64,000 nucleotides of DNA from positions 6,941 to 70,940 of the forward strand of contig CAYIMB010000001.1 in assembly GCA_964364425.1 (NCBI GenBank), read 5' to 3'. Of the stretch, positions 24,733 through 59,256 are shown piece by piece. Within the stretch, counting starts at the first letter, position 1. Each line of letters opens with the position of its first letter. Source of the stretch: an uncultured Gammaproteobacteria bacterium (lineage in GTDB: Bacteria > Patescibacteriota > Patescibacteriia > UBA9570 > JBBTWU01). Made by a program: the position numbers and the translations under genes. The notes under the pieces were generated by a model that was not told the DNA's origin, ran no database searches, and worked only from the letters and a program-made list of their open reading frames with translations.

Positions 24733-24736
24733 AGAG

Positions 24737-26242: not shown

Positions 26243-26243
26243 A

Positions 26244-38150: not shown

Positions 38151-38159
38151 GTGGGAAGT

Positions 38160-41100
38160 ATGGAAAAAATCTTAGACGGTCTGAATTCAGCTCAAGCCGA
38201 AGCGGTGTGCCACCGGAATGGTCCATTGTTGTTGGTGGCCGGAGCGGGGACGGGAAAAACGACAGTCATTACCAGGCGCTTGGCCAAGCTCATTCAGGAT
38301 GGGGTGGCTACTCCTGATCAGGTATTAGCTCTGACCTTTACTGACAAGGCAGCGGGTGAGATGGAAGAGCGTATAGATACTTTGATGCCCTATGGGTATA
38401 CAGATTTATGGGTATCTACATTTCATTCTTTTGGAGAACGTTTGCTCCATGAGTATGGGCTGGACATAGGCCTGCCGCATCAATTCAAATTGTTGAATCA
38501 AACGGATCAATGGTTACTCTTGCGCGAACATATTGAGGAATTGGGCCTGGAGTACTACCGGCCAAAAGGCAATCCGACCAAATTTGTTGAAGCGTTATCT
38601 CACCATTTTTCTCGTTTGAAAGATGAGATGATTACACCGGAGCAATATGTGGAATATGCAGAAAAGTTGTGTCTAAACTTAGACGCAGAAGTTGCGCGGA
38701 CAAAACAAACCTTAACAGATGAAGAACGGGCAGGTGCAGATGAAGCCATACGTATTCGCGAGTTAGCCCACGCCTACCATGTATATCAACAGTTATTACT
38801 GGCAGAAAACGCTTTAGACTTTGGTGATCTGATTTTCCATACCGTGCAGTTACTAAAAAAACGTCCGGCTATTTTAAAAAAATTGCGTGATCAATTTCGC
38901 TATATTATGGTAGATGAGTTTCAAGATACCAACTTGGCACAATACGAGCTGATCAAGTTAATTGCTTCACCTAAAAATAATTTGGTGGCCGTGGGTGATG
39001 ATGACCAATGCCTCCCGGTAGGAACAAAAGTAACCATCCCCGGCGGAGAAAAAAGTATTGAGAGCATTAAATCTGGCGATGTGGTTTTGACTGCAGTCGG
39101 GAAAGGAAGTTTGAGCACTTCCGTAGTTTTAGCCTGTTCAAAAAAGAAAAAGACTTCAAGATTTCTTACATTTCAACTAGAAGATGGTCATTCATTAACT
39201 GCTACAGATAATCACAAGCTTTTTTGTTACGTCCCAAGAATTGATCAAGGGGGTAGAACCTATGTTTATGTGATGCATAGTTCATTGTTTGGGTGGAGGA
39301 TTGGAATAACAAATGATTTGGCCACCAGGTTATCTTTAGAAAGGGGTGCTGATAAAATTATAGCTTTACGCTCATTTTCTGATCCAGATGAAGCGAAGTT
39401 CTATGAAATACTGTGGGTTCTGCGTTATCAAATTCCGCCTGTTTGTTTTAAAGAAAGAGAGGGGGTAGCCATTAAGGGGGAATGGTTGAGTCGTCTATAC
39501 CATGAAATAGACACTGAAAAGAATATACAAAAGTTAGCAAAAGATCTGAGGGTAGATTTGCATAGTCATCATGTTGGTTTAGATAGTGTCAATAGAGGTC
39601 GGGGCAAGCGGCTAAAGATTCATTTTAAACTTTGCTATAGAAGTCATAAAATAAAAGGGAGGAATGATTCGATTCTATCTCAACCCCTTGTTCAACATAT
39701 AGTTGAGTTCCAAACTTCCCAATTAGACATCATCCGGAAATTAAAGTTAGCGGGAATTGAAACTCAGAAAGCTAAAAAAGGAATCAGGATCAGAAAGGCA
39801 GGTGTTGACTTAACTGTATTAGAAAACTTTGCACAAAAGGTTGCAGAGATTACAACAGGCTACATTGAATACTCTTTCGATGTCGGGAGAGTAAATATAC
39901 AATCTAAAAAAGCTTTATGTATGCCAGCAGGGAATGTTGTGATTGGTCATTTTTTGCCCGTACAAGTTAAAAATCATATTGAGTATAAAAAGGTTATTGC
40001 TATTCAAGAAAAAGTTACTACGGAGAATGTATATGATTTGGAGATTGCCAGAAGTCACAACTTTTTGGCTAATGGAGTAGTAGTACATAATTCGATTTTC
40101 AAATGGCGTGGAGCATCCGTGTCTAATATTCTGCACTTCCAAAAAGATTTTCCAAACCTGAAGCAAATCGTGCTCACAGAAAATTACCGGTCAGGGCAAC
40201 CTATTCTGGATTTAGCCTACCAATTCATTCAGCAAAATAATCCGGACCGTTTGGAATCAAAACTAGAGATTCAAAAACGGTTGGTGGCTAAGTCAGGACG
40301 TGAGGGAAAGGTATTTCATTTGCGCAGTATGACCGGAGAAGGTGAGGCGCATACTATTGTGAGAAAGATTGCGGAGTTGAAACAGGAACATCCGGACTGG
40401 ACCTGGAGTGATTTTGCCGTTTTGGTTAGGGCGAATGATCATGCGGAAAGTATTTTACCGTTGTTGGAACGGGCCAACATTCCTTACCAGTATGTAGCTT
40501 CCACGGGATTATTTTTGAAACCGCTTATGTTGGATATTTTGTCGTATTTGCGCGTGGTGGAAAATGTGCATAACAATTTGGCTTTGTACCGCGTGCTGAC
40601 CATGCCCATGTGGAAGCTGGCGGCAGAAGATGTGATGGCAGTGTTGAATTACACTGCCCGCAAACCGGTGGGGATGTTGGACACGCTGAAGAACTGTCGA
40701 GCCATTGGGGGCCTGAGCGTTCCAGCGTGTGTGACCATAGAACGCATGCTTTCACTCATGGCCCAGCACTCCCAATTGGTGCGTGAAAAACATGCGGGAG
40801 AGGCGGTCTTGAAGATTGTTCAAGACGTTGGATTGATGAAATGGATGACGGATCAAGAGGAACAGAAGGCGGCACAACATTTGGTCTTACTCAACCAATT
40901 ATTCCAACTGATCGCCTCGTTTGAACAAAGTGCTGAGGATAAGCGGGTTAAATACTTTCTACACAACGTAGATTTAATGCTTGAGGCTGGGGATGCTGGT
41001 GCACTGAAAGTAGATATTGATGAAGGGCCGGAATCAGTTAAAGTCATGACGGTACACGCTTCCAAGGGTCTGGAGTTTCAAGCCGTATTTGTCACCAATC

Positions 41101-42182
41101 TAGTGGATAAACGATTTCCTTCAGTTGGTCGGAACGAACCTATTTCTGTTCCGGATGATTTGCTCCAAGAAATTTTACCCACCGGGGATGCGCATCTTCA
41201 AGAGGAACGTCGTTTATTTTATGTTGCCTGTACCCGGGCTAAACAATACTTATTCCTTACCAGTGCGGAAGATTACGGTGGTATGCGGAAGAAAAAACCC
41301 AGCCGGTTTTTAGTTGAATGTGGATTGGCTGAAGTCAAAGCTGAACCAACCGGCGTGGTGGCCTTTGCAGCGCAAGATCAGGCCATTCCTGCGGAACGCG
41401 CTGTGGTGTTGTCGCATGCCCCTGAGACGTTTAGCTTCTCCCAATTTGAGGCCTATGAACGCTGTCCCTGGCAATACCGGTACCGGTTTGTCCTCAAAGT
41501 ACCGGCCCCCGGAAACTACTCAGCTTCCTTTGGTCGTAGCGTGCATGACACCTTGTTGGAGTTTTTTAAACGTGTGCGGTCTAACACAGAAGCCTCACAG
41601 GGCACGTTGTTTGGTCCGGCGGAAAAACTTACGCTTCCCACAGACAAAGACCTCCTCCAAATTTTTGAAGACAAATGGCAGTCTGATTGGTATGCTACAC
41701 CCAAAGCTGAACAAGAATATAAAGAAGCCGGTCGTAACGCCTTAAAAGAGTTTTACAACATCCATCATCAGGCCTGGCCCAAGGTGAAGTATTTGGAAAA
41801 AGGATTTTCTTTGCGTCTAAAAGACGTCACGGTGAAAGGTAAAATTGACCGGGTAGATGGAGTGGGAGATTCAAAGGTTCAGGTCAATGTGGTGGATTAT
41901 AAAACTGGGCGGTTCAAAGAAAAGAAAGACTTCAACCAGTTGTTTATTTACGCCATGGCCATTCAGGACGTGTTTAAAGAAGAACCGCAACAGGTTGGAT
42001 ATTATTTTATTGAAGAAAATAAACCTTTGGATAAACCGGTGACTCAGCAGGCCTTAGACAAAACGCGTGATTGGGTGCTGAACCTAGCTGAGCAAATTCT
42101 GTCCGGCGACTTTACGCCCTCCCCAGGCCAGCAATGCCAATTTTGTGATTACCGCTCCATTTGTGAATTTAGAGCGGTTTAA
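38160..42182 (+). CDS. UvrD/PcrA-family helicase fused to a C-terminal Cas4/AddB-like PD-(D/E)xK nuclease with a Cys cluster; interrupted by an intein
   Basis: Walker A motif GAGTGKT, motif II DEFQD, motif III VGDDDQ/SIFKWRGA split by the intein, C-terminal VVDYKTG nuclease motif and C...CxxCx5C cysteines. The ATG at 38160 is preferred over the GTG at 38151. Confidence 0.85.
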   Translation: MEKILDGLNSAQAEAVCHRNGPLLLVAGAGTGKTTVITRRLAKLIQDGVATPDQVLALTFTDKAAGEMEERIDTLMPYGYTDLWVSTFHSFGERLLHEYGLDIGLPHQFKLLNQTDQWLLLREHIEELGLEYYRPKGNPTKFVEALSHHFSRLKDEMITPEQYVEYAEKLCLNLDAEVARTKQTLTDEERAGADEAIRIRELAHAYHVYQQLLLAENALDFGDLIFHTVQLLKKRPAILKKLRDQFRYIMVDEFQDTNLAQYELIKLIASPKNNLVAVGDDDQCLPVGTKVTIPGGEKSIESIKSGDVVLTAVGKGSLSTSVVLACSKKKKTSRFLTFQLEDGHSLTATDNHKLFCYVPRIDQGGRTYVYVMHSSLFGWRIGITNDLATRLSLERGADKIIALRSFSDPDEAKFYEILWVLRYQIPPVCFKEREGVAIKGEWLSRLYHEIDTEKNIQKLAKDLRVDLHSHHVGLDSVNRGRGKRLKIHFKLCYRSHKIKGRNDSILSQPLVQHIVEFQTSQLDIIRKLKLAGIETQKAKKGIRIRKAGVDLTVLENFAQKVAEITTGYIEYSFDVGRVNIQSKKALCMPAGNVVIGHFLPVQVKNHIEYKKVIAIQEKVTTENVYDLEIARSHNFLANGVVVHNSIFKWRGASVSNILHFQKDFPNLKQIVLTENYRSGQPILDLAYQFIQQNNPDRLESKLEIQKRLVAKSGREGKVFHLRSMTGEGEAHTIVRKIAELKQEHPDWTWSDFAVLVRANDHAESILPLLERANIPYQYVASTGLFLKPLMLDILSYLRVVENVHNNLALYRVLTMPMWKLAAEDVMAVLNYTARKPVGMLDTLKNCRAIGGLSVPACVTIERMLSLMAQHSQLVREKHAGEAVLKIVQDVGLMKWMTDQEEQKAAQHLVLLNQLFQLIASFEQSAEDKRVKYFLHNVDLMLEAGDAGALKVDIDEGPESVKVMTVHASKGLEFQAVFVTNLVDKRFPSVGRNEPISVPDDLLQEILPTGDAHLQEERRLFYVACTRAKQYLFLTSAEDYGGMRKKKPSRFLVECGLAEVKAEPTGVVAFAAQDQAIPAERAVVLSHAPETFSFSQFEAYERCPWQYRYRFVLKVPAPGNYSASFGRSVHDTLLEFFKRVRSNTEASQGTLFGPAEKLTLPTDKDLLQIFEDKWQSDWYATPKAEQEYKEAGRNALKEFYNIHHQAWPKVKYLEKGFSLRLKDVTVKGKIDRVDGVGDSKVQVNVVDYKTGRFKEKKDFNQLFIYAMAIQDVFKEEPQQVGYYFIEENKPLDKPVTQQALDKTRDWVLNLAEQILSGDFTPSPGQQCQFCDYRSICEFRAV
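39009..40091 (+). mobile_element. Intein (361 aa) in helicase motif III
   Basis: Begins with Cys directly after VGDDDQ, has a block-B TxxH (TATDNH), and ends VVVHN followed by Ser. The extein halves rejoin to the canonical GDDDQSIFKWRGA. Confidence 0.8.
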
Positions 42183-42220: not shown

Positions 42221-42814
42221 ATGAAAGAATCAAGACGATTAGCTCGCGTAGGTATGGCAGCCTTGGGTTTAGCAGCCGCCGGTGCGCCCGGTCAGGCAGA
42301 AGCCGGTATCACTCATAAGAAACCCGGAATGGAAACACACCAAATAGCTGATGTGGTTGCTCCGGTTGACCATGAAACCAGAAAGCTCATGGAAAAATGG
42401 GGCATTGATTTTAATGGCAGAGAAATTCGGTTGAAGCTTGATCCTAGAGATGACGGAAGACCCTTGGTCGCCGGAGAACCAAATGCTGTTGTACAAGTTT
42501 CACATGTCGGAAATGACAAAGTTGTATTCCGTTTTGTTGAGCGTGATGGGGGAGTTGGATCAGTCTCTATTGTACGAGGATATGAGGCAGGTTCATTTGA
42601 ATTCGATTTGAATGTCAGTCAAGGCCACCCACGTAGTGGGTCCGTTGAACAAGGGCTTGGTAAGCATACCTATGGAGAGTACGGAAAGGTTCGAGTGTTT
42701 GGGATGCATACGCATAAACCACCGTCTGATCCTGGAATGAAATGGTATTATCATAACCCTAAAGGAGAAGAGAAAGAGGGTTGGTGGTACCAGGCGCGTG
42801 AGGGCTCAAGATAA
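42221..42814 (+). CDS. Hypothetical secreted protein (197 aa) with C-terminal GMHT...PGMKWYY...G..WY motif
   Basis: N-terminal signal-like sequence (SRRLARVGMAALGLAAAGAPGQAEA). Confidence 0.6.
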   Translation: MKESRRLARVGMAALGLAAAGAPGQAEAGITHKKPGMETHQIADVVAPVDHETRKLMEKWGIDFNGREIRLKLDPRDDGRPLVAGEPNAVVQVSHVGNDKVVFRFVERDGGVGSVSIVRGYEAGSFEFDLNVSQGHPRSGSVEQGLGKHTYGEYGKVRVFGMHTHKPPSDPGMKWYYHNPKGEEKEGWWYQAREGSR

Positions 42815-42864: not shown

Positions 42865-42986
42865 ATGTGACTTATACTGTTTTTTTGGGTATATCAGGCC
42901 TGACCCCTTGATTTTATATCGATTTTCAGCTATTATCTCTGGCCATCATGGAAGGAATTCCGTGCTCTGCAACCCAGGAGACTCCC

Positions 42987-43244
42987 ATGTTGCAACCCCT
43001 CATGTTTCTTGTCCTCGTCATGGGGCTGTTCGCCGCCCCGTCCACCGCCAACGCCCGGCCGCCCAAGCACCACCAGGCGGCGGCGAGTCACCACGTCCGC
43101 GCCTACGGCCACCACCGCCCGCCCCCGACCCGCATCTACGGCATGCACACCCCGCTGCCCATCCCGCCCGCGGGCATGAAGTGGTACTACAAGGACGGGT
43201 CCAAGGGCCACTACTGGTACCTGGCCCCGGCGCCGGCCTACTAG
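42987..43244 (+). CDS. Small secreted protein (85 aa), paralog of the C-terminus of 42221-42814, encoded with near-100 % GC3 codons
   Basis: AGGAG Shine-Dalgarno 6 nt upstream of the ATG. Signal peptide MLQPLMFLVLVMGLFAAPSTANA, His-rich middle, C-terminal GMHTPLPIPPAGMKWYYKDGSKGHYWY. Confidence 0.6.
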   Translation: MLQPLMFLVLVMGLFAAPSTANARPPKHHQAAASHHVRAYGHHRPPPTRIYGMHTPLPIPPAGMKWYYKDGSKGHYWYLAPAPAY

Positions 43245-43375: not shown

Positions 43376-45577
43376 ATGCAAGACCAAGTCATTCTCAAAT
43401 TACGCTTTCCCTTTGAAGACGCTTTGCGAGACCCAGTTGAACGTGTGGGAAAATTTGAGTCATTTTTTTACAACGTGTTTCATTTGATGCTCAAGCGCGG
43501 TGAAGTCATGTCATTTGAAATTGTGCAGATTAACGGGATCATGGATTTTTATATTGTGGCACCACGTATTTTGGTTCCCGCAGTACAATCTTTTCTGTAC
43601 GGTGTGATGCCAGATGCTTCTATTGATGAAGTGCAAACCTATGAACACCTTGATGCACTTCCATCTCAAGCCGTTGGGTTTCACCCGCGCTTAAAAGGAA
43701 GTGAAGCCTTCAGCTTACGATCATTCCGTTCCTCAGCCGGGGATCCGTTAAACGCATTTTTTAATTTACTGTCGGCTGTCCCTTCAACCGACGCAGTGTT
43801 TTATCAAGTCTTAGTCCGCACCATTGACGAGTCTTTAACTGGAGAAGAGGGGACAAGTGTGTATGGCTTTACAGAAAAACAAGAAACGGAAGAAGCGAAA
43901 CCAAAGTTCAGCACCACGGTGCGTATGTTGTACTTTCCTCAAGACGCTGAAGATATTAAAACGCGTAGCTTGTCATTTGAAAACGTGTTTAGCCCATTCT
44001 CTACAGAACACAATCATATTGAAGTACAAACCGTGGCCAACATTCAACAGTTTGTAGATGAATATTTCCGGCGCACAGAACAGGCGACTGGTGTGTTTAC
44101 CACAGAAGAAATCGCGTCCTTTTTCCACTCACCGGATCCAGCCGCAAAAATCCGTGGTGTGAACTGGTTGTATTCAAGACGAGCTGAACCACCTATGAAT
44201 CTGCCTTCCTTGAAGAACTGTGAGGAAGATGAATTGTCCATGTTTGGTGAAACCAACTTTCGCGGTCAGCAATTAGAATTTGGAGTGAAGCGGGAAGACC
44301 GTAGACGGCATTTGTATATTGTGGGTAAGAGCGGTACGGGTAAATCGAAGTTATTGGAGAAACTGATTAGTGACGATATTAAGGCAGGTAAAGGGGTGTG
44401 CGTCATAGACCCGCACGGTGACTTGATTCAAGCCTTGTTGTATCACATTCCGCAAGAACGCGTAGAGGATTTGGTGTATTTTAATCCTGCGGACTTGGAT
44501 TTTCCCATTGCGTTTAATCCCATTGCCAACGTGACCCGAGAGTTCAAGCAACAGGTGGCGCAAGGCATGATTGAAATTTTCAAGAAATTTTTTGGTGCGG
44601 ACTGGAGTCCCAAGATTGAACACGTGTTCCGCTTTACTGTTTTGGCCTTGTTGGATTATAAGAAAGCCACGTTGATGGGTATGCAGAAAATGTTGACCGA
44701 CCGACCATACCGCCAAAGTGTCATTTCAGAAATTCAAGATCATGTGGTTAAAAAATTCTGGGCCAATGAATTTTCTAGTTGGTCAGAAAAATTTGATAAT
44801 GAAGCTATTGTGCCTTTGGTGAACAAATTAGGACAGTTTTTGGCAAATGAGATGGTGCGCAACATAGTCTCACAAACTCAAAATAAGATTGACTTTGATG
44901 ATATTATGAATAACCAACGGATTCTGTTGGTTGAATTATCTAAAGGAAAATTGGGTGAAGAGAATTCTGCTTTACTTGGTTCTTTGATTATCACCAAGAT
45001 TGAACAAGCTGGTATGGCACGGGCCTTTGTTTCGGCTCAAGAACGTAAGGACTTCTACCTGTATGTAGATGAGTTCCAAAATTTTGCCACCAAAACGTTT
45101 GATAACATTTTGTCTGAGGCCCGTAAGTATAAACTCAACCTCACCATCTCACATCAATACTTAGGACAACTCTTAAGCTCTACCCGTGAGACGGTGTTTG
45201 GAAACGTTGGTTCTATTATTACTTTCCGTTTAGGCGCAGAAGATGCCGGATATATTGCCAATGAGTTTACTCCACGCTTTACGGCCTATGATGTGATGAA
45301 CCTATCTGTACGAGAAATGTACGTCAAAATGTCCATTGCTGGTGTAGTGGCGCCGCCTTTCTCGGCTCGTACCATGAATGTAGAAGACCCAGAATTTAAT
45401 GAGACCATGCACAATCGTCTGATTGAAGCTTCCCGGAATAAGTATGCAACCCCACTGGCTGAGGTGGAAGCTGAGATTGCCGGAATTGATCAGATAGTTG
45501 TCAGTTCTAATGGAACGGGCAAGCTGGCGGCGCAAGCGGAGTCAACAGATACCGTATTTGAGGCACCTCTGGTGTAA
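43376..45577 (+). CDS. VirD4/TraG-like (AAA_10 superfamily) coupling-type ATPase with no N-terminal TM anchor (alternative start at 43283)
   Basis: Walker A motif VGKSGTGKSKL, VIDPHGD, Walker B motif LYVDEFQNF, and the TISHQYLGQL motif (Q-S/H-x-x-QL). No hydrophobic N-terminal helices. Confidence 0.6.
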   Translation: MQDQVILKLRFPFEDALRDPVERVGKFESFFYNVFHLMLKRGEVMSFEIVQINGIMDFYIVAPRILVPAVQSFLYGVMPDASIDEVQTYEHLDALPSQAVGFHPRLKGSEAFSLRSFRSSAGDPLNAFFNLLSAVPSTDAVFYQVLVRTIDESLTGEEGTSVYGFTEKQETEEAKPKFSTTVRMLYFPQDAEDIKTRSLSFENVFSPFSTEHNHIEVQTVANIQQFVDEYFRRTEQATGVFTTEEIASFFHSPDPAAKIRGVNWLYSRRAEPPMNLPSLKNCEEDELSMFGETNFRGQQLEFGVKREDRRRHLYIVGKSGTGKSKLLEKLISDDIKAGKGVCVIDPHGDLIQALLYHIPQERVEDLVYFNPADLDFPIAFNPIANVTREFKQQVAQGMIEIFKKFFGADWSPKIEHVFRFTVLALLDYKKATLMGMQKMLTDRPYRQSVISEIQDHVVKKFWANEFSSWSEKFDNEAIVPLVNKLGQFLANEMVRNIVSQTQNKIDFDDIMNNQRILLVELSKGKLGEENSALLGSLIITKIEQAGMARAFVSAQERKDFYLYVDEFQNFATKTFDNILSEARKYKLNLTISHQYLGQLLSSTRETVFGNVGSIITFRLGAEDAGYIANEFTPRFTAYDVMNLSVREMYVKMSIAGVVAPPFSARTMNVEDPEFNETMHNRLIEASRNKYATPLAEVEAEIAGIDQIVVSSNGTGKLAAQAESTDTVFEAPLV

Positions 45578-45604: not shown

Positions 45605-47359
45605 ATGTCCACTTGCCAAAATTGTCATACGAATTTTCCTATCACGCAGCGTGAAGCGGACTTTCACGCCCGCTTATCTGTTCCAGCCCCAACTTGGTGT
45701 TTTGAATGCCGTTTGCAACGGAAAATGATGTTCCGGAATTATCAAAACCTATCTCGTCAGAAGTGCTTGAAGTGTGGGAAAGAAATAATTTCCATGTTTT
45801 CTGAACAGAGCCCAGTCACGGTCTGGTGTTCAGATTGTTTTGTTTCGGACACTTGGGAGGCCCAAGACTTTGCGTTGGAGGTTGATTTCTCAAGACCATT
45901 TTTATCTCAAGTCCGTGAACTGATGCAGACTGTTCCTCAACAACATTTGAACCAAAAGCAGAATGAAAATAGTCCTTGGAACAACCACCAAAGTCAGAGT
46001 AAAAATTGTTACATGAATTTTGGTGGAATAGCTAATGAAGATGGAGCTTACAACCATTGGTCTGGCTTCACAGCCAACTGTTTGGATAACTATGCCCTGC
46101 TGAATTCACAGGTCTGTTATGAAACAAACTTAGTGACTGAATGTTACCAAACATTTTTTTCCCATTTTGTTTTTAACTCGCATGAAGTGTATTTTTCTGA
46201 AAATTGTTTTAACTCTTCCAACATCATTGGCTGCTTCAATTTAAAAAGTAAATCGTATCATATTATTAATCAACCGGTGGCTCCGGATGAATTTAGACAA
46301 GAATTGAAGAAACTCCGCAGTTACGCCTACCAGCAAGAGTTCAAACAACGGTTTTGTGCTTTCAAGCTCACTCAACCATATCCTGCCGTTCACCATGTGG
46401 CCACCACTGATTCTACCGGCGACTATTTGGTCCGGAGCCATAATAATGTCAACATTTTTACTGCGGTTGAAGTTCAAAATTGCACTAATGCCTTCAGTGT
46501 TGGCTTTATAAAGGATTGTATGGATATGTTTTCCAGTAGTTTGGGGACGGAGTTATGTTATGAGTATGGTGGTGATGGCCAGAAATGCTATAAGGTACTT
46601 TTTTCTTTTGATTGTGAACAATCTCAGGACTTATTCTATAGCTATCATTGTTTTAATTGCTCTGATTGTTTTGGCTGCGTTGGTCTGAAAAATAAACAAT
46701 ATTGTATTTTGAACAAGCAATATAGCAAAGAGGAGTACCAAGCGTTGCTGCCAAAATTAAAACAGCACATGGGTAATCTCCCATATACAGATGCCAAGGG
46801 GAGAGTCTATCCGTTTGGAGAATTTTTTCCGGGAGAACTCTCGTCTTTTCCCTATAATGACAGCATTGCACAAGATTTTTATCCCCTCACGGCTGAACAA
46901 GCTCAAACACAAGGCATGAGATGGCGGCCAGAAAAATCAGCTCAGTATACTCCAACCGTTCAAGCCACTAACTTACCAGATCAGATTGACCAGGTACCAG
47001 ACTCCATCTTAAAAGAGATTATAGCCTGCGAACATGAAGGAACCTGTAGTGACCACTGCACCCGGGTGTTTCCTATTATTCCCATGGAGCTGGAATTTTT
47101 GAGAACCTACGGGATGCCCCTGCCTCACCTCTGCCCAAATTGTAGACACATCAGGCGGGTGAAACAAAAGAACTCTATGAAACTGTGGGAACGAGCATGC
47201 CAATGCGCTGGCACCACTAGCCAAAGCAAAGCCTACCAGAACCAGGTTGCTCATGATCATAGGGCTTCCGCCTGTCCGCGCGTGTTTTCCACCACCTACG
47301 CCCCAGAACGGCTGGAGATGATTTACTGCCAAGAATGCTACCAGGCGGAAGTGGTCTAG
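45605..47359 (+). CDS. Cysteine-rich repeat protein flanked by zinc-ribbon-like CxxC pairs
   Basis: CxxC pairs at both termini. The centre is a ~11-13-aa periodic C-[YF]-x-N/x ladder (NCYMNF, NCLDNY, VCYETN, ECYQTF, NCFNSS, GCFNLK, NCTNAF, DCMDMF, LCYEYG, KCYKVL, HCFNCS, DCFGCV). Confidence 0.55.
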   Translation: MSTCQNCHTNFPITQREADFHARLSVPAPTWCFECRLQRKMMFRNYQNLSRQKCLKCGKEIISMFSEQSPVTVWCSDCFVSDTWEAQDFALEVDFSRPFLSQVRELMQTVPQQHLNQKQNENSPWNNHQSQSKNCYMNFGGIANEDGAYNHWSGFTANCLDNYALLNSQVCYETNLVTECYQTFFSHFVFNSHEVYFSENCFNSSNIIGCFNLKSKSYHIINQPVAPDEFRQELKKLRSYAYQQEFKQRFCAFKLTQPYPAVHHVATTDSTGDYLVRSHNNVNIFTAVEVQNCTNAFSVGFIKDCMDMFSSSLGTELCYEYGGDGQKCYKVLFSFDCEQSQDLFYSYHCFNCSDCFGCVGLKNKQYCILNKQYSKEEYQALLPKLKQHMGNLPYTDAKGRVYPFGEFFPGELSSFPYNDSIAQDFYPLTAEQAQTQGMRWRPEKSAQYTPTVQATNLPDQIDQVPDSILKEIIACEHEGTCSDHCTRVFPIIPMELEFLRTYGMPLPHLCPNCRHIRRVKQKNSMKLWERACQCAGTTSQSKAYQNQVAHDHRASACPRVFSTTYAPERLEMIYCQECYQAEVV

Positions 47360-47417: not shown

Positions 47418-47858
47418 ATGTCTTTACCCCGTTTTTTGTTTTTCACCGCAGTTGGTACGCTGGTGTGTATATTGGCCTGGTTGTTTGTGTTGTTTTTTAT
47501 AGATCCGACTCAGGGTGGGGCCATTGGACCCACATTATTTTTCATCAGTCTCTACTTAAGCGTATTTGGAATATTTCTCTTGATTGGCTTCTTTATCCGC
47601 TTAATCATTCACAAACAAGAGCCTCCCTTCCACCATGTTGCTATCTCCTTGCGCCAATCCTTTTGGCTCGCTACTCTGCTGGTACTCTCCTTAATCCTCC
47701 AGTGGAACGGTCTATTTGAATGGTGGATAGGAGTCCTGCTAGTTATAGGCTTCTCTGTACTTGAAGCATTTTTCCTCTCCCGGGCTGTGGATAAACGTTC
47801 CAAGCGTCGTCCAGTCCATCACCCTCAATCCCACGAAATTGAACACCCAGTCAACTAA
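47418..47858 (+). CDS. Hypothetical 4-TM membrane protein
   Basis: Hydrophobic helices; TATAAT 9 nt upstream of the ATG. Confidence 0.5.
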   Translation: MSLPRFLFFTAVGTLVCILAWLFVLFFIDPTQGGAIGPTLFFISLYLSVFGIFLLIGFFIRLIIHKQEPPFHHVAISLRQSFWLATLLVLSLILQWNGLFEWWIGVLLVIGFSVLEAFFLSRAVDKRSKRRPVHHPQSHEIEHPVN

Positions 47859-47859
47859 T

Positions 47860-48879
47860 ATGTACGAAAAAGAAATAGAACAAGCCAAAGAGCAATTGCG
47901 AAAAATTGATTCCCCGCAGACGTTGGAAGAGTTTCGTGTGAGATGGTTGGGACGCAAAGACGGCATGGTGACCCAAGCCATGAAGAAGATTGCTGAGTTG
48001 CCAAAACAAGAACGGGCGGAGGCGGGGCAGTCAGCAAATCGATTTAAAAGTATCATTGAAACCGAATTTGAGTTAGTCAAACAACAACTGGAGCAAGCCA
48101 CGCACAAACAAACGGTGGTAGACCCAACCTGGCCAGGAACAGTTCCACCCTCTGGCTCCATTCACCCGGTGACTCAAATGATTTTCAAAATCTGGGAAGT
48201 GTTCTCTGATATGAATTTTAAAATCTGTGAGGGTCCTGAAATAGAAACAGACTGGAACAACTTTGAAGCGTTGAATGTCCCAAAGCATCATCCAGCTCGG
48301 GATATGCAGGATACCTTTTATACCCCAGGCGGATTTTTGTTGCGCACACATACCACGGCAACGAACGCAAGGGTCATTCTTGGGGAACAGAGAAAGTCAC
48401 CGATTCGGATTTTATCAACGGGTAAATGTTACCGGCGTGATTCTTCCTTGCGGCATAGTCCTATGTTTCATCAATTTGACGGGGTGATGATTGATAAGGA
48501 TATTTCAATGAGTAACCTCAAGTGGACTTTAGAAGTTGCCTTATCAAAGACATTGGAGCAGGAGATAAAAGTTCGCTTACGCTATTCATATTTTCCGTTT
48601 GTTGAGCCTGGAGCAGAATTTGATGTGACCTGTACCATTTGTGCCGGCTCAGGTTGCGCGGTATGTAAGCACTCAGGTTGGTTGGAATTAGGTGGTTGCG
48701 GCATGTTGCATCCTAATGTGTTGCGTAATTTGGGCTTGGATCCAAAAGAAGTGCAAGGATGGGCCTTTGGATTCGGGATTGAGCGGCCTATGATGATTAA
48801 ACACCGTATTCCAAACATCCGCCTCTTCTTTGATAATGACCCGCGCTTCTTATCTCAATTTCAAGCACCATCTGTATGA
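47860..48879 (+). CDS. pheS: Phenylalanyl-tRNA synthetase alpha subunit
   Basis: Class II motifs (FRxxYFPFxEPGAE). The ATG at 47860 is preferred over the ORF-track start at 47761. Confidence 0.9.
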   Translation: MYEKEIEQAKEQLRKIDSPQTLEEFRVRWLGRKDGMVTQAMKKIAELPKQERAEAGQSANRFKSIIETEFELVKQQLEQATHKQTVVDPTWPGTVPPSGSIHPVTQMIFKIWEVFSDMNFKICEGPEIETDWNNFEALNVPKHHPARDMQDTFYTPGGFLLRTHTTATNARVILGEQRKSPIRILSTGKCYRRDSSLRHSPMFHQFDGVMIDKDISMSNLKWTLEVALSKTLEQEIKVRLRYSYFPFVEPGAEFDVTCTICAGSGCAVCKHSGWLELGGCGMLHPNVLRNLGLDPKEVQGWAFGFGIERPMMIKHRIPNIRLFFDNDPRFLSQFQAPSV

Positions 48880-51254
48880 AAGTAATTCAATCTTGGTTAG
48901 CTGATTACATCCTACGCTTCAATATCTCACCTGAAAAATTGAGCGCTTTACTGACGGCGCGAGCGGTGGAGGTGGATGAAGTCCTTGATCTCAAAGATAA
49001 ACTTCAATCCATTGTGGTGGGAAAAATTCTGACCATGGAAAAGCATCCAAATGCTGCCCGTTTACGCGTGGCTAAAGTCAGTCTTGGAGCTAAACGGTTA
49101 TCTATTGTATGTGGTGCGCCAAATATATACGCCGGAATGTACGTGGCTGTGGCTCAACCCGGTGCTCATGTGGTGGATATGCAGAGCGGGGAGTGGAAAC
49201 AACTTGAGGCAGCCACTATCCGTGGTGTAGCCAGTGAAGGGATGATTGTGGGAGCAGATGAGTTGGCTTTGGCGACTGGAGCAGCTGCGCAGAATGAACG
49301 ACTGGTCATGGACTTAACTGAGGTGGCAAAAGATACTCACGTAGGGAAATCAATTGTCTCTGTACTAGATGTTTCCCCGGTATACGACTTGGATGTGTTG
49401 GCCAATAGACCAGACTTGATGAGTCACCGCGGTGTGGCCAAAGAAATTGCAGGCTTGTTGAAATTGAAATATACCGAACCAACGTTGTCGCTTCCAAAAG
49501 CACGTAGTAAAAAAGCCCCAATCACCATTCAAATTCAGGCTAAACGGTTAGTTCCACGGTATGCTGGCTTGGTGCTGAGTGGAGTGAAGTTTCAACCGTC
49601 ACCACTCTGGATGCAACACCGATTGCGTCGTGCTGGCATTAGGCCAATTAATCTGGTCGTAGATGTGACCAACTACGTTATGTTGGATGTGGGGCAACCT
49701 CTGCACGCTTTTGATTTGGACAAAGTGGTGAAATTCATGAGAGTGAGAGAGTCTAAAAAAGGGGAGAAGCTGATGACTTTAGATGGCAAGCAACATGAGC
49801 TTCCACCGGGAGCTATAGTGATTGAAGATGGTAGCGGTTTGATTGATTTGGCTGGAATTATGGGCGGACAGTCCAGCATGATCACTGACCAAACTCAAAG
49901 AATTTTCATACAAGCAGCGGTGTTTAGTCCTGAACGTGTGCGCATGACTTCTCGGGCACTGGGACACCGCACAGAAGCTTCAGGTCGATATGAAAAAGGT
50001 GTTTCACCAGTATTAGTGGATCAAGCCTTACAACTGGCCTATGACTTATTGCACCGCCTGATGCCATCCGTGCAGTTGGAATCTATGGTTGATATCAAGC
50101 AGCCGGTCAGTGCTCCAGTGCAGGTTGTTATACGCACAGCTAAAACCAATTCACTCTTGGGCTCTAGAGTCACCCCTCAACAGATTGAAACAGTCATAAA
50201 GACTTTAGGGTTTACTGTATTGAAGAAAACCCAAGATAGTTTAAAGGTTCGTCCACCGCTCCACCGCTTAGATGTGAAGATTGAAGAAGACGTGATTGAA
50301 GAAGTTGGACGCTACATGGATTATAACTCCTTGCCTAAAACCGGACCTGTCCTACAACTTGAACCAGCCCCAACTACAGACGCCATTCGTTTGCGGCCAA
50401 TGATTTTTTCTACACTGGCTACTGCAGGCTGGACTGAAGTGATGCAGTTGTCGTTCACCAATGCGCAGCATATAAAACTTACCGGAAAGACGGAAAAGGA
50501 ATATATGCGTCTGGTCAATCCCATGAGCGAAGATCAAGCATTCATGCGTTCTGAGTTGTTGTCTACGTTAGTTACTTTGGCCAAGAAACACCTACGTCTA
50601 GGAACTACTCCAAAAATCTTTGAACTCGCCAAGGTATTTATTGCCCAGGGAACAGACTGGGCAGAAATTCCGCACCTGGCTGGCATGACTGTAGGCAAAG
50701 ACAGCTTTGCTCAGGTAAAGGGGGGTGCTGAGGCGCTACTGAAACGCCTACATATAGACCAAGTAAGGTTTGAACCAGCAACTCACTGGGCTTTTTATCC
50801 AGATACTTGTCTCAGTCTTAAGCTCGGAAAGGAATCAATAGGAACTATTGGCCAAATTAATCCAGAACTAGCTAAACAACTAGGAGTAGATCAACCTTGT
50901 GCCGGGTTTGAGTTATCTTATGATCAACTTATTCACTTAACTTCACCTCGCTTTGCTTATCAAGATATCCCAGTCTTCCCCAACATCATTTTAGATATTT
51001 CAGTGATCATTCCTGAGAACATCCAGTGGAAAGCGGTAGAAGAAGTGGTGCGGAATTTCGGCGGGGAGTTTTTATCTGAAGTAAAACCTTTTGATATTTA
51101 TACTGGAGATCCCATTCCGAAGGGTAAAAAGAACCTCGCTTTCAGGGTAGAATTTCAGGCCAAAGACAGAACGTTGGAGATGTCGGAAGCGGAAAACGCC
51201 AGAACTCAAATTGTGGCCCAGTTGAACCAAAAATGGGGTGCAAATTTGCGCTAA
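48876..51254 (+). CDS. pheT: Phenylalanyl-tRNA synthetase beta subunit
   Basis: tRNA-binding N-terminus, B3/B4 and B5 domains, 792 aa, overlaps pheS by 4 nt. Confidence 0.9.
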   Translation: MKVIQSWLADYILRFNISPEKLSALLTARAVEVDEVLDLKDKLQSIVVGKILTMEKHPNAARLRVAKVSLGAKRLSIVCGAPNIYAGMYVAVAQPGAHVVDMQSGEWKQLEAATIRGVASEGMIVGADELALATGAAAQNERLVMDLTEVAKDTHVGKSIVSVLDVSPVYDLDVLANRPDLMSHRGVAKEIAGLLKLKYTEPTLSLPKARSKKAPITIQIQAKRLVPRYAGLVLSGVKFQPSPLWMQHRLRRAGIRPINLVVDVTNYVMLDVGQPLHAFDLDKVVKFMRVRESKKGEKLMTLDGKQHELPPGAIVIEDGSGLIDLAGIMGGQSSMITDQTQRIFIQAAVFSPERVRMTSRALGHRTEASGRYEKGVSPVLVDQALQLAYDLLHRLMPSVQLESMVDIKQPVSAPVQVVIRTAKTNSLLGSRVTPQQIETVIKTLGFTVLKKTQDSLKVRPPLHRLDVKIEEDVIEEVGRYMDYNSLPKTGPVLQLEPAPTTDAIRLRPMIFSTLATAGWTEVMQLSFTNAQHIKLTGKTEKEYMRLVNPMSEDQAFMRSELLSTLVTLAKKHLRLGTTPKIFELAKVFIAQGTDWAEIPHLAGMTVGKDSFAQVKGGAEALLKRLHIDQVRFEPATHWAFYPDTCLSLKLGKESIGTIGQINPELAKQLGVDQPCAGFELSYDQLIHLTSPRFAYQDIPVFPNIILDISVIIPENIQWKAVEEVVRNFGGEFLSEVKPFDIYTGDPIPKGKKNLAFRVEFQAKDRTLEMSEAENARTQIVAQLNQKWGANLR

Positions 51255-51285: not shown

Positions 51286-54011
<2,726 letters not shown>

Positions 54012-57819: not shown

Positions 57820-59256
57820 ATGTCAGATTGGCCAGTCTACTTTAAAGAGAACTTGATTGTTGGAAATCTTGACTCCGGAGTTGGAGTCGCTACGCTTTGG
57901 TCTCCGCGGGAAGCTATTGCCAAGGGTCTAGACCCTAAGACCTATTGCGTGATTGGTCAGTTGTATGCCAATGATGGGATTAATCCCATGATTCGGAATA
58001 TCATGGCCAGGCCGCAAATCAGAACACTGGTGCTATGCGGTCAGGATAAAATTGGTTCAGCCGATTCTTTGGCTCATTTGATTAACAACGGCATAGATGA
58101 AAAAGGGAAGGTGGTAGGCAAGCCGGAGTCAAAAGTGGAAAAAGAAATTCCACGGGAAGCGGTGGAGAAATTCCGGCAGAATGTGAAGCTGGTGGATATG
58201 CGTGGAGTGTTTGATACGGTTAAAATCCAGACCGCCATTAATGAGGTGTCTCAAGACAATACGGCGTTTGCAGAACCACAATTATTCCCGGAGCCGGAGA
58301 TTTCCACTGACCGGTACCCAACAGATGCTTCCACCATCAAAATTCGGGGAAAGTTTGTTGGCGACGTGTGGCTGCGTCTACTCTGGCACATCATGCGGTT
58401 TGGGGCAGAAAAACAGTCACATCACGGGACGAACCAGAAAGAGTTGTGGAATGTAGTCACTGTCATAGAGGAAGAAGATCCGACTCATATCAAATGGTCG
58501 CCGTGGTTTAATTTCACACAGGAACATTTTGAAGGGTATAAGCCGCAAGTGATGACTAAAGAGAAAATTCCTTCGTTGGAATATACCTACGGTCAACGCC
58601 TGAGAGATCATGACGGGATTGACCAGATTGCTTCCATTAAAGAAAAGCTCAAAAAAGAGCCGTTCAGCCGGCGGGCTGTGGGCGTGACTTGGAATGTGCA
58701 GTTGGATGATTCCAGCACCCATCCACCATGTTTAGATATTGTGCAGTGTGTGGTTCAAGATGAACTGTTGTTGATGAATTGTTACTTCCGTTCCAATGAC
58801 ATGTTTAGAGCTTGGCCGGAAAACGCTTTGGCTTTGCGCACCATGCAAAAAGAAATTGCAGACGAACTGGGAATCATGTTGGGTTCTTTGACCATTGTTT
58901 CAGCTTCTGCACATGTGTACGAAGAAAGTTACGCGGCGATCAAGGAGATGTTGAAGGAGTATTATCCTAAGGCCCTTGATTTTTGTGAATTTGATCCACG
59001 AGGTAATTTTGTCATCTCAGTCTCAAACGGAACTATCAACTTGATTCAGATGAATCCCACCGGATCAAAAATTGGAACGTACTCAGGAAAGACTGCCATG
59101 CAAGTCTATCAAAAGCTGGTTGAAGATTATGCGGTATCTATTATTGGACATGCCTTAGATTTAGGCGGAGAGTTACAAAAAGCTGAGATGTGTTTGCGTT
59201 TAGGTATTCAGTATACGCAGGACCGCCCAGTGCCGTTTCAGGATTTGAAAAAGTAG
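57820..59256 (+). CDS. thyA: Thymidylate synthase (ThyA family) with an uncharacterised N-terminal extension of about 175 aa
   Basis: HPPCLD catalytic-Cys motif, YFRSNDMF...WPEN, SAHVYEE, and an upstream GTNQKELWNV region. Confidence 0.7.
   Translation: MSDWPVYFKENLIVGNLDSGVGVATLWSPREAIAKGLDPKTYCVIGQLYANDGINPMIRNIMARPQIRTLVLCGQDKIGSADSLAHLINNGIDEKGKVVGKPESKVEKEIPREAVEKFRQNVKLVDMRGVFDTVKIQTAINEVSQDNTAFAEPQLFPEPEISTDRYPTDASTIKIRGKFVGDVWLRLLWHIMRFGAEKQSHHGTNQKELWNVVTVIEEEDPTHIKWSPWFNFTQEHFEGYKPQVMTKEKIPSLEYTYGQRLRDHDGIDQIASIKEKLKKEPFSRRAVGVTWNVQLDDSSTHPPCLDIVQCVVQDELLLMNCYFRSNDMFRAWPENALALRTMQKEIADELGIMLGSLTIVSASAHVYEESYAAIKEMLKEYYPKALDFCEFDPRGNFVISVSNGTINLIQMNPTGSKIGTYSGKTAMQVYQKLVEDYAVSIIGHALDLGGELQKAEMCLRLGIQYTQDRPVPFQDLKK

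Follow-up and report, generated by a model that had tools for sequence, protein, structure and literature searches.

The Tenebrio molitor antifreeze protein (TmAFP, PDB 1EZG) is made up of 12-residue TCTxSxxCxxAx coils, and a beta-solenoid coil of 12 residues has essentially no lumen. To our knowledge, a solenoid geometry of 12 residues per coil with a Cys/Ser core is otherwise known from the insect antifreeze proteins. The genomes of Patescibacteria are roughly 1 Mb in size. A 2025 census of these bacteria found VirD4-like ATPases in thousands of genomes, approximately two per genome and remote from any T4SS, and left their function open; only 148 of the 5,713 Patescibacteria T4CPs were located near virB4 (PMC12102498). 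A precedent for a coupling ATPase that works with dedicated cytoplasmic adaptors is the Legionella DotL-DotM-DotN-IcmSW complex, a type IV coupling complex in which several adaptors widen the range of the clients (PMC7280309). In the 64-kb stretch of DNA that was analysed in this work (the window), the gene that follows a VirD4-like ATPase encodes a protein with predicted zinc modules at both ends and two predicted beta-solenoids between them, and its family is a new one that is made from known fold types.

Gene and domain organisation

The position that an earlier note on this DNA had given for the gene, an ORF of 584 aa at 45605-47359, was confirmed exactly on the + strand, and its product contains 35 Cys residues (6.0%). 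The start at 45605 is supported because the invariant C4/C7 finger lies inside the resulting protein, while the 543-aa database call P0001 would truncate this finger. More than 6,431 full-length homologues were found at approximately 40% identity. A hydrophobic-segment scan of the protein revealed neither a signal peptide nor a TM segment, and the domain map (Table 1) shows what is predicted from the sequence and the model to be a cytoplasmic, rigid, multi-zinc scaffold with the order ZnA, solenoid 1, solenoid 2, region X and ZnA'.

The conserved residues of the helical linker include D82-x-W84, F99, Q102 and P111, while region X, which is acidic (family mean net charge -5), carries the motif PYxDxxGR..YGEFFPxExSxFxYNxxxAQ, and the C-terminal end of the protein (...CYQAEVV) is also conserved. 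The zinc modules had a pairwise identity of 50% and region X with its helix one of 46-52%, compared with 35-37% for the solenoids and 29% for the helices between them, which is a modest difference in conservation between the domains.

Table 1. Positions of the twin-solenoid gene, its domains and the adjoining genes in the window.
Feature	Position	Strand	Description and evidence
VirD4/TrwB/HerA-type (T4CP-like) P-loop ATPase, 733 aa	43376..45577	+	Pfam DUF87, TrwB_AAD_bind; NCBIfam VirD4-like/TraD
Gene of the zinc-capped twin-solenoid protein (predicted)	45605..47359	+	complete ORF, ATG start, 584 aa
ZnA, N-terminal zinc module, aa 1-85	45605..45859	+	treble-clef finger, then second zinc ribbon
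Helical linker, aa 86-120	45860..45964	+	AlphaFold2 helices 86-89 and 99-109; conservation
Solenoid module 1, aa 121-226	45965..46282	+	lag-12 z=6.2 (first half of the central region); pLDDT 92-97; homology to module 2
Two-helix linker, aa 227-262	46283..46390	+	least conserved segment, 29% pairwise identity
Solenoid module 2, aa 263-372	46391..46720	+	homologue of module 1 (hhalign E=4.8e-39); lag-12 z=4.2 (second half)
Helix aa 373-391 and region X aa 392-470	46721..47014	+	conserved; region X mostly irregular
ZnA', C-terminal zinc module, aa 471-584	47015..47356	+	homologous to ZnA; treble clef and ribbon
146-aa protein, 4 predicted TM segments	47418..47858	+	58-nt gap downstream of the twin-solenoid gene

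Terminal zinc modules

The CxxC pairs that had been described as capping both termini are real, of the zinc type by sequence and invariant in the family. Invariance was restricted to the terminal Cys and His residues, the invariant Cys being C4, C7, C32, C35, C475, C485, C510, C513, C532, C534, C557, C575 and C578. The treble-clef finger of ZnA (C4, C7, C32 and C35; motif F-x-I...FY...VPxPTxCxxCR) is followed by a second zinc ribbon (C54, C57, C75 and C78), which is present on an all-or-none basis in 56% of the family. ZnA' contains a treble clef (C481, C485, C510 and C513), whose residues were conserved at 95-100% in the 60-sequence alignment, with C481 dropping to 60% in the wider set of 185 sequences, and a ribbon (C532, C557, C575 and C578). 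A 23-aa insertion (C534, H550 and H552) probably forms a further zinc site in ZnA' together with C475/H477. The N-terminal and C-terminal modules are homologous to each other (hhalign E=4.7e-19), and, because each consists of a treble clef and a ribbon, four to five structural zinc sites are predicted for the window protein.

Weak matches to PF13451 (zf_Tbcl) and PF23477 (zf_Tbcl_2) were obtained for 26 (best E 2e-5) and 15 (best E 7e-5) of the 60 homologues, respectively, and every match of the family lay below or near the threshold. Both are 'probable treble clef' Pfam families that likewise have no known function. A paralogue from the Kerfeldbacteria locus (L087) matched a zf_Tbcl-type model with E=0.006 and 17 bits against a cut-off of 24, while the window protein had no match to either family at E<=1. 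Two conserved CxxC pairs approximately 25 residues apart and a helix after the second pair are common to all of them; however, in the twin-solenoid family, a second ribbon is attached to the finger, and each protein contains two such finger-ribbon pairs. Phage models that are annotated as a 'putative zinc-ribbon domain' superposed on the zinc part with a probability of 1.00 over 61 columns.

Solenoid modules

The periodic Cys-aromatic repeat that had been noticed in the sequence is significant and has a period of 12 residues. Profile autocorrelation of the 60-sequence alignment peaked at lag 12 (z=7.8 over aa 125-370) with lags 3, 9 and 24 also scoring, and the termini gave no periodicity signal in the same analysis. 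In the single sequence, 30 of the 39 nearby Cys-Cys spacings were multiples of 3, which was reached by 1 of 5000 shuffles, and an aromatic residue (Y/F/W) followed Cys 12 times compared to the 4.6 expected (binomial p=0.001); this was the case for 9/17 Cys of the central region (p=0.0006). The earlier note had described one ladder over the central 300 aa. The repeats do exist there, but they are divided into two homologous modules of about 110 aa that are split by helices, with aa 128-236 aligning to aa 274-384 (hhalign E=4.8e-39). Two of the checks that the note had proposed came out in favour of a solenoid, since the autocorrelation and the duplication revealed internal repeats and AlphaFold2 gave a confident solenoid model (pLDDT 91.3, pTM 0.88).

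This model contains the strand patterns EEEE--E--E-- and EEEE--EEEE-- with a period of 12 at aa 121-226 and 323-372. Its pLDDT was 69-81 over aa 261-330 and above 93 beyond, and the middle part of module 2 (aa 270-320) is variable and was modelled with lower confidence. Module 1 comprises approximately nine coils of 12 residues in the register [K/E][N/D][C/S][Y/F]....C..[C/S] with the terminal cap motif CFGCxNLxNKxYxIxN, while module 2 ends with the motif CFGCVGLKNKQYCILN. Cys is found at every third position of the solenoids in a register that is fixed within each ungapped stretch, and the variable-Cys columns of module 1 (positions 123, 126, 135 ... 219) all share one 3-residue register. In the model, each solenoid is a narrow beta-helix whose coils have 12 residues, which agrees with the beta-solenoid with an internal Cys ladder that had been suggested. 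Every third residue is small (Cys, Ser, Thr or Gly) and presumably fills a tight core, and the adjacent aromatic (Y/F) and Asn/Asp residues were shown to form ladders as well.

Database searches and related folds

Scans of Pfam, NCBIfam, PADLOC and PHROG with the protein returned no significant match, and the family profile likewise found none in these or among the PDB sequences. The PDB sequence search was negative for the single protein as well as for the full profile, and the zinc-module profile produced only LIM-domain noise (E>=0.29). The view that no known family can be recognised was therefore upheld by these searches. An Elf1-like zinc-ribbon match (E=8e-4) was far below its cut-off. 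We found no literature on this family, on zf_Tbcl or on DUF8128.

With TmAFP, the solenoids share the 12 residues per coil and the small, presumably inward residue at every third position, which is often Cys. An outward-inward-outward triplet is also common to both, as T-C-T in TmAFP and as [N/D]-C-[Y/F] in the twin-solenoid family, but there is no detectable homology between them (Foldseek 1EZG E=1.4, rank 50). Moreover, TmAFP is secreted, whereas the twin-solenoid protein is predicted to be cytoplasmic, has no Thr (TxT) ice-binding face and carries its solenoids as two modules inside a 584-aa multi-zinc protein. Among its correlated Cys columns, no i/i+6 pairs of the TmAFP disulfide-ladder type were found, and, because the Cys are not obligatory pairs, there is no sign of a disulfide ladder. 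The family would provide a case of a beta-solenoid with a Cys/Ser core and 12-residue coils in a bacterial protein of the cytoplasm.

The pentapeptide-repeat proteins (MfpA, Qnr and AlbG) are also mildly acidic beta-helices, but they have 20-residue square coils of 5-residue repeats rather than 12-residue coils; neither a signal at lag 5, 10 or 20 nor a match to Pfam Pentapeptide was found in the twin-solenoid protein. DNA mimicry, an idea that arose from the pentapeptide-repeat matches, was not persuasive with a solenoid charge of only -2 to -5. In the viral BFVD library, the full model had only generic beta-helix and zinc-ribbon matches.

Family distribution and genomic context

At 90% identity, the family falls into more than 6,400 clusters; at 50%, it has 5,450 representatives. 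All of the named sources are Patescibacteria (CPR) and all of the members are annotated as 'hypothetical'. The genes occur in tandem arrays of up to 11 copies per 22 kb. Paralogues that share a locus have an average identity of 41%; for 96% of them, a closer relative (59%) is found in another genome, and the clusters at 50% identity contain approximately one member per locus. These figures indicate that the paralogues are ancient, i.e., that they are conserved orthogroups of uniform architecture. Despite the small genomes, many Patescibacteria carry several to eleven copies of a 1.75-kb gene in a row. A mobile-element origin was considered and rejected, as tblastn found no match in 50,697 phage or 72,556 plasmid records and one partial match in 2.9 million viral contigs.

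In the window, the gene lies between the ATPase and the 4-TM protein as had been stated, with a gap of 27 nt to the ATPase stop and of 58 nt to the 4-TM gene; PheS starts at 47860, right after the latter, and is followed by PheT. Only in close relatives does the 4-TM gene accompany the twin-solenoid gene, and none of the other 84 loci contained a homologue of it. No TM segment was predicted in the ATPase, hence we call it soluble. Its start was set by the L086 orthologue (MQDQVILKL), its orthologues are 60-93% identical and approximately 740 aa long, and its relatives have a DUF8128-type N-terminal domain. Scans of the window with Rfam found nothing, and those for promoters and terminators found no more sites than in shuffles.

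VirD4-like ATPases were the commonest neighbours from outside the family (49 genes in 31/85 loci; the next commonest neighbour family was found in 12 loci), and they make up approximately 4% of the genes in these loci. Of the full-size ATPase genes, 29/44 directly adjoin a twin-solenoid gene in the same direction with gaps of 6-755 nt (median ~77), and this adjacency extends from the window and L086 to Kerfeldbacteria (L087) and many Paceibacteria-type loci. However, no ATPase was present within ~10 kb in 54/85 loci. Orthologues of the window ATPase in Peregrinibacteria and Abawacabacteria have no adjoining twin-solenoid gene, and the ATPase can therefore do without the twin-solenoid protein. 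One ATPase subfamily has a treble-clef CxxC...CxxC finger of its own (PF23477), which is followed by a long tail, and the zinc-module HMM of the family matched none of the ATPases, including this finger. No T4SS channel genes (VirB4, VirB6 etc.) were present among the scanned ORFs of the 64-kb window, which leaves 'coupling' to a secretion channel without support. The wider conserved cluster includes SecD/SecF and small membrane proteins, and clusters of the Paceibacteria type combine two ATPases (A and B) with a 172-aa TM protein and paralogues of the family. Genes for aminoacyl-tRNA synthetases (aaRS) are also found near the family (MetRS in 12 loci and CysRS in 7), but a specific link was rejected in favour of a conserved housekeeping gene order. 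DnaJ and a sigma70_r4/HARE-HTH protein are neighbours elsewhere.

Discussion

The reading that we prefer, to which we give a probability of about 40%, is that the twin-solenoid protein may serve the soluble VirD4-like ATPase encoded upstream as an accessory or adaptor subunit. In this reading, docking onto the ATPase or a nucleic acid would be the task of a constant part, which comprises the conserved basic zinc modules together with region X. Each ancient paralogue would owe its own client specificity to its more variable solenoid surfaces, and the ATPase would supply the energy for moving or remodelling whatever the adaptor holds. By analogy from gene adjacency, this resembles the Legionella DotL-DotM-DotN-IcmSW-LvgA system, in which a VirD4-family ATPase is likewise encoded with non-ATPase cytoplasmic partners; however, the ATPase that is linked to the twin-solenoid genes is soluble, has no TM segment and lies away from a T4SS channel. 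Gene adjacency alone would look the same for a partner, for cargo and for genes that are simply co-regulated.

Two alternatives concern the solenoids themselves. A divergent left-handed beta-helix (LbH, hexapeptide-repeat) enzyme of the acyltransferase type was suggested by the fold search, in which the only PDB matches of the full model at E<1e-3 were the LbH proteins 3c8v, GlmU and LpxD (3e-4 to 9e-4), and by a BFVD phage 'hexapeptide repeat' model (probability 0.95 over 139 columns). Short strands and small corner residues in a parallel beta-solenoid are common to the family and to LbH proteins such as GlmU, LpxD and gamma-carbonic anhydrase. However, the TM-scores of the matches were ~0.1 with an rmsd of 17-23 A, the period is 12 rather than 18 (lag 6 reached only z=2.6 and lag 18 was outside the top lags) and neither the window protein at E<=1 nor any of the 60 homologues matched Hexapep (PF00132). 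In addition, the isolated solenoid 1 model (pLDDT 80.7) had no PDB match at E<1e-3, its best match being a pentapeptide-repeat protein (E=0.03, TM 0.24), there are no trimer or active-site features and the invariant residues do not have a catalytic His/Asp pattern. This reading is already largely refuted. It is also very improbable that the protein is a metal store or metallochaperone, in which the Cys-lined lumen of the solenoids and the terminal sites would bind Zn, Cu(I) or Fe-S. The 9-30 central Cys per protein (mean 18), all in the 3-residue register and presumably facing the core, would suit such a role, as would the CutA1 gene (divalent-ion tolerance) that lies between the ATPase and the family genes in six loci. 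However, each central Cys is replaceable, mostly by Ser (frequencies 0.12-0.88), and their presence or absence showed no pairwise covariation (best phi 0.3-0.5), unlike the genuine optional zinc ribbon C57/C75/C78, which served as the positive control (phi 0.98-1.0). The metal-binding rungs that the earlier note had considered are not borne out by these frequencies. Moreover, general beta-solenoid geometry leaves a coil of this size almost no room to be lined. Because they recur at every third residue, are freely swapped with Ser and do not covary, the central Cys are best read from the alignment as small core-filling residues, and the ladder would be a pure packing device without disulfides or metals, neither a catalytic nor a metal site.

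The other two alternatives keep the predicted architecture and assign it a different task. An autonomous nucleic-acid-binding or regulatory housekeeping protein, in which the treble clefs bind DNA or RNA, the solenoids serve as a spacer and operon co-regulation alone accounts for the link to the ATPase, is unlikely in our judgement. It agrees with the basic treble-clef cores (family mean net charge +3 and +7), with a setting in housekeeping operons (PheS/PheT in the window; aaRS, DnaJ and sigma70_r4/HARE-HTH elsewhere) and with the majority of loci, in which the ATPase is missing from the surrounding 10 kb. However, the whole protein is mildly acidic (-8 for the window protein and -3 as the family mean), the Pfam, NCBIfam and PDB searches showed no similarity to known DNA- or RNA-binding families, the adjacency to the ATPase is far stronger than any other and the aaRS neighbours are explicable by the conserved gene order. 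We consider it improbable, too, that the protein is cargo which the VirD4-like ATPase passes on for export (by a T4SS or another route), for example, so that it can act on or in the host cell of these epibiotic bacteria. T4CPs recruit substrates and the two genes adjoin, arrays of many tandem copies are a typical feature of host-interaction repertoires and the SecD/SecF genes and small membrane proteins of the wider cluster would fit an export function. Against this, the protein would be costly to unfold because of its predicted zinc sites and its compact, confident fold, it has no signal peptide and it ends in a structured zinc ribbon, invariant in the family, instead of a flexible signal tail. 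The paralogues, as ancient orthogroups that are conserved and share one architecture, are also unlike fast-diversifying effectors, and no T4SS channel genes are nearby (for the census, see PMC12102498).

Returning to the adaptor reading, a bolder extension of it, which is speculative and which we hold to be improbable as a whole, is that the orphan VirD4-like ATPases of Parcubacteria-type Patescibacteria may belong to an unrecognised cytoplasmic machine. Such a machine would consist of one or more soluble ATPases, a small membrane anchor and approximately ten twin-solenoid paralogues as client-specific adaptors, which would select DNA, RNA or protein for translocation or remodelling without a classical T4SS. 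If true, it would explain why up to ~20 kb is spent on this family in reduced genomes as well as the purpose of the orphan coupling proteins. No other family adjoins the VirD4-like ATPases directly as often as this one, which makes it a concrete and testable candidate partner for the ATPases whose function was left open by the census (PMC12102498).

Architecture and fold of the family

The ORF was confirmed as it had been read in the earlier note, with an ATG start and 584 aa, 35 of which are cysteines; a cysteine is followed by an aromatic residue 12 times versus about 4.6 expected (p=0.001). In a formal internal-repeat check, which was based on the autocorrelation of the profile of an alignment of 60 homologue sequences (A1) and scored against column shuffles, the peak for aa 125-370 lay at lag 12 (z=7.8), lags 3, 9 and 24 likewise scored, and the periodicity was absent from both termini. 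In the window protein alone, 30 of the 39 nearby Cys-Cys spacings were multiples of three, which was reached by one of 5,000 shuffles. The periodicity that had been described as a repeat every 11-13 residues is therefore real, but its spacing is that of a true 12-residue repeat. The centre does not form the single ladder that had been proposed; it consists of two homologous modules, aa 128-236 and aa 274-384 (hhalign E=4.8e-39, 109 columns), both of which close with the motif CFGCxxLxNKxYCIxNxxY(S/T)xEEY and then a helix. Homology likewise links the two termini (aa 6-81 and aa 484-581, hhalign E=4.7e-19). Each has a CxxC...CxxCR finger and then a second four-Cys ribbon, the CxxC pairs previously seen at both ends being family-invariant in A1. 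A 23-residue insertion, which holds C534, H550 and H552, is present in the C-terminal copy. The homology of the modules and of the termini therefore gives the order N-terminal zinc module (ZnA), solenoid 1, helices, solenoid 2, helix, the conserved region X (aa 392-470) and C-terminal zinc module (ZnA').

The AlphaFold2 model that was built with A1 (pLDDT 91.3, pTM 0.88) contained the 12-residue strand patterns EEEE--E--E-- and EEEE--EEEE-- at aa 121-226 and 323-372, and the rows-of-twelve consensus was [K/E][N/D][C/S][Y/F]....C..[C/S]. Across 185 members, the variable-Cys columns of module 1 all fell at 123, 126, 135 ... 219, in one 3-residue register, which module 2 shares except for shifts at indels. 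The geometry is that of a very narrow solenoid that requires a small residue at every third position. The same arrangement is found in the Tenebrio antifreeze beta-helix, in whose coil (TCTxSxxCxxAx) every third residue is small; homology to this protein was undetectable with the isolated solenoid 1 model (1ezg, Foldseek E=1.4).

While the beta-solenoid with a Cys ladder that was suggested in the earlier note was borne out, its metal-binding rungs were not. The central cysteines have family frequencies of 0.12-0.88 with serine as the usual substitute, number 9 to 30 per protein, and showed no pairwise co-variation in their presence or absence among 185 members (best phi 0.3-0.5), unlike the positive control, the optional N-terminal ribbon, in which C57, C75 and C78 are all-or-none and occur in 56% of members (phi 0.98-1.0). 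Because of the serine exchange, the variable counts and the lack of pairwise co-variation, we conclude that the ladder probably serves packing and that metal would be bound at the ends. The terminal modules are predicted to bind zinc, and the window protein should have two sites in ZnA and two or three in ZnA'.

That no known family could be recognised was upheld by the profile, PDB sequence and fold searches. Pfam gave no match to the window protein at E<=1, NCBIfam only a far sub-threshold Elf1-type ribbon match, and PADLOC and PHROGs none. Neither the protein nor the profiles of the family and of the zinc module had a significant match among PDB sequences. When the 60 homologues were scanned singly, 26 touched PF13451 (zf_Tbcl) and 15 touched PF23477 (zf_Tbcl_2), both labelled "probable treble clef" with the function unassigned. 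Foldseek matched the full model in the PDB to left-handed beta-helix proteins only (E 3e-4 or worse, TM about 0.1), while the isolated solenoid 1 model (pLDDT 80.7) had no PDB match with E<1e-3, its top match being the pentapeptide-repeat protein MfpA (E=0.03). In a viral structure library, generic beta-helices matched the full model, and small phage "zinc-ribbon domain" proteins superposed on the finger. The beta-solenoid and treble clef are known fold classes; the family itself is not known, and it is the arrangement that is new.

Distribution and tandem arrays

A word-indexed search returned at least 6,431 homologue clusters at E<=1e-3, all full length, about 590 aa and about 40% identical, which were "hypothetical" or "uncharacterized" where named and came from Uhr-, Niyogi-, Lipton-, Jorgensen-, Giovannoni-, Nomura-, Staskawicz- and Wolfebacteria and Paceibacteria/Minisyncoccia. 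An exhaustive profile search gave 5,450 representatives at 50% identity (2,328 below 1e-30). The family was not found in the phage or plasmid records searched, and 2.9 million viral contigs yielded one partial match. The family to which the gene belongs is very large and uncharacterised, and it is restricted to Patescibacteria.

The 85 surveyed loci (about ±10 kb each) contained 221 family ORFs, almost all co-directional, with two or more in 53 loci and up to 11 in 22 kb in the densest array (L075); the immediate neighbour was another family gene in 146 of 219 cases. Same-locus paralogues were on average 41% identical (maximum 55%), 96% of them had a closer relative in another genome (mean 59%), and 50%-identity clusters had essentially one member per locus. 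A recent amplification was rejected on the basis of these identities, which point to old arrays of long-maintained, probably sub-functionalised paralogues. Loci L075, L056, L039, L013 and L063 each carry 9-11 co-directional paralogues per ~20 kb, among which one to three VirD4-like ATPase genes are scattered.

Genomic context

When all neighbours in the 85 loci were clustered, the commonest family was a VirD4/TrwB/HerA-type ATPase (49 genes, 31 loci), followed by one found in 12 loci. Full-size ATPase genes directly adjoined a family gene co-directionally in 29 of 44 cases, with gaps of 6-755 nt; in the window, where the ATPase had already been named as the neighbour, its stop lies 27 nt before the family start. 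The listed 889-aa ATPase ORF extends across a separate small gene, its Pro/Arg-rich first ~150 codons probably do not belong to the translated ATPase, and the true start most likely encodes MQDQVILKL, as in the 737-aa orthologue in L086, the locus of a close relative. The ATPase is predicted to be soluble. Its orthologues have ~740 aa, annotations that include "DUF87" and, in many, an N-terminal DUF8128; those in Peregrinibacteria and Abawacabacteria lack an adjacent family gene. The window ATPase matched the phage family phrog_5156 (unknown function, E=4e-68) and the PADLOC model mad8 (E=3e-16), and relatives therefore also occur in phages and candidate defence systems. One subfamily of the VirD4-like ATPases (620-815 aa) has its own CxxC-x17-CxxC finger at about aa 450-500, which in L003 is PF23477, and after it a long low-complexity charged C-terminal tail, often ending ...EVPEDVLRKILE.

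The L086 locus has, in this order, the orthologous ATPase, three family paralogues, the same 146-aa 4-TM protein and PheS/PheT. The Kerfeldbacteria locus L087 reads SecD, SecF, sigma70_r4/HARE-HTH protein, DUF8128 protein, two ATPases, toxin-antitoxin pair and family member, and Paceibacteria-type loci read SecD, SecF, HARE-HTH, ATPase A, 172-aa TM protein, ATPase B, sometimes CutA1, and family array. The order from SecD through ATPase B is shared between these genomes; the sigma70_r4/HARE-HTH protein (~340-377 aa) precedes the DUF8128-like/ATPase A gene, and the ~172-aa protein is single-TM and without a Pfam match.

The 64-kb window has only housekeeping genes, including those for IleRS, RecO, a ClpB-like ATPase, MetRS, an Mrp/complex-I-like cluster, F-ATP synthase, UvrD, PheST and GyrB, and no T4SS channel genes were found within it. 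A 4-TM protein follows the family gene, as previously noted, and lies before the phenylalanyl-tRNA synthetase genes. Synthetase and family genes are separated by a small membrane protein every time; that of L025 is an unrelated one of the YGGT family. The synthetase of L006 and L025, from distant lineages, is of the monomeric tRNA-synt_2d+FDX-ACB type, and its proximity may be conserved gene order only.

Coordinates of the family gene, its neighbours and other features (window positions unless a locus is given)
Feature	Location	Strand	Remark
Family gene	45605-47359	+	
VirD4/TrwB/HerA-type ATPase	43376-45577	+	most likely start
Two small paralogous proteins	42221-42814; 42948-43244	+	signal-peptide-like N-termini
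UvrD/PcrA-type helicase	38151-42182	+	putative intein
GyrB	51315-54011	+	putative intein
Mrp/complex-I-like membrane module	23143-29925	-	fused 30-kDa/49-kDa subunit, two Proton_antipo_M proteins, NuoH-like NADHdh
478-aa fusion	57820-59256	+	MtrA-like, thymidylate-synthase-like and pterin-binding DUF4346 domains
Phenylalanyl-tRNA synthetase genes near family genes	47860-51254; L006:17623-18777; L025:15644-16795		distant lineages
DUF433/PIN toxin-antitoxin pair	L087:10327-10925		between ATPase and family gene, Kerfeldbacteria
Conserved upstream gene order	L013:3313-9971; L005:2950-9815; L017:13392-20069; L036:1401-9946; L087:1-10253		
Finger-bearing ATPase subfamily	L003:1314-3458; L036:12228-14291; L053:7789-9975; L063:13070-15517; L064:7562-9664; L075:1091-3163; L084:11-2053		

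Possible function

Beside the architecture, periodicity, conservation pattern and gene linkage, which are established, we tentatively propose (probability about 0.4) that the family protein, which its sequence places in the cytoplasm, may assist the soluble VirD4-like ATPase as an accessory protein or adaptor. A constant docking part would be made up of the zinc modules and region X, and the solenoids with their intervening helices would provide paralogue-specific surfaces. This fits the pairwise identities of 46-52% for the former and 29-37% for the latter, a modest difference. The cores of the treble clefs carry basic charge (+3, +7). An analogy, not a homology, is the Legionella DotL complex, in which a coupling ATPase works with dedicated cytoplasmic adaptors (PMC7280309). 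Across 2,918 Patescibacteria genomes, a 2025 census counted 5,713 VirD4-like coupling proteins, of which just 148 lay near virB4, and assigned them no role (PMC12102498). Its size, its new arrangement of known fold types and its tie to this ATPase raise the family above the usual hypothetical protein in interest.

An autonomous nucleic-acid-binding housekeeping protein is the least doubtful of the four rival readings, though an unlikely one. That the protein is cargo of the ATPase is somewhat less likely still, as several structural zinc sites are predicted, the C-terminus is structured and invariant, and the orthogroups are conserved. A metal store is highly improbable and an LbH-type enzyme even more so, with the rest of the probability falling to something else.

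Other genes in the window

The two small paralogous proteins upstream of the ATPase share the C-terminal motif GMKWYY...G..W(Y), and neither has a Pfam match; the gene for the second is the one concealed within the over-extended ATPase ORF, and L086 keeps a 196-aa homologue of the first. Judged by sequence, both the UvrD/PcrA-type helicase and GyrB seem to contain an intein; the putative inserts start with Cys after DDDQ and GDSAGG and end ...VHN/S, the slash marking the junction, and GyrB has 898 aa versus 679 aa in its L086 orthologue. The Mrp/complex-I-like module is, to our knowledge, uncommon in Patescibacteria genomes. The 478-aa fusion protein is conserved in L086.
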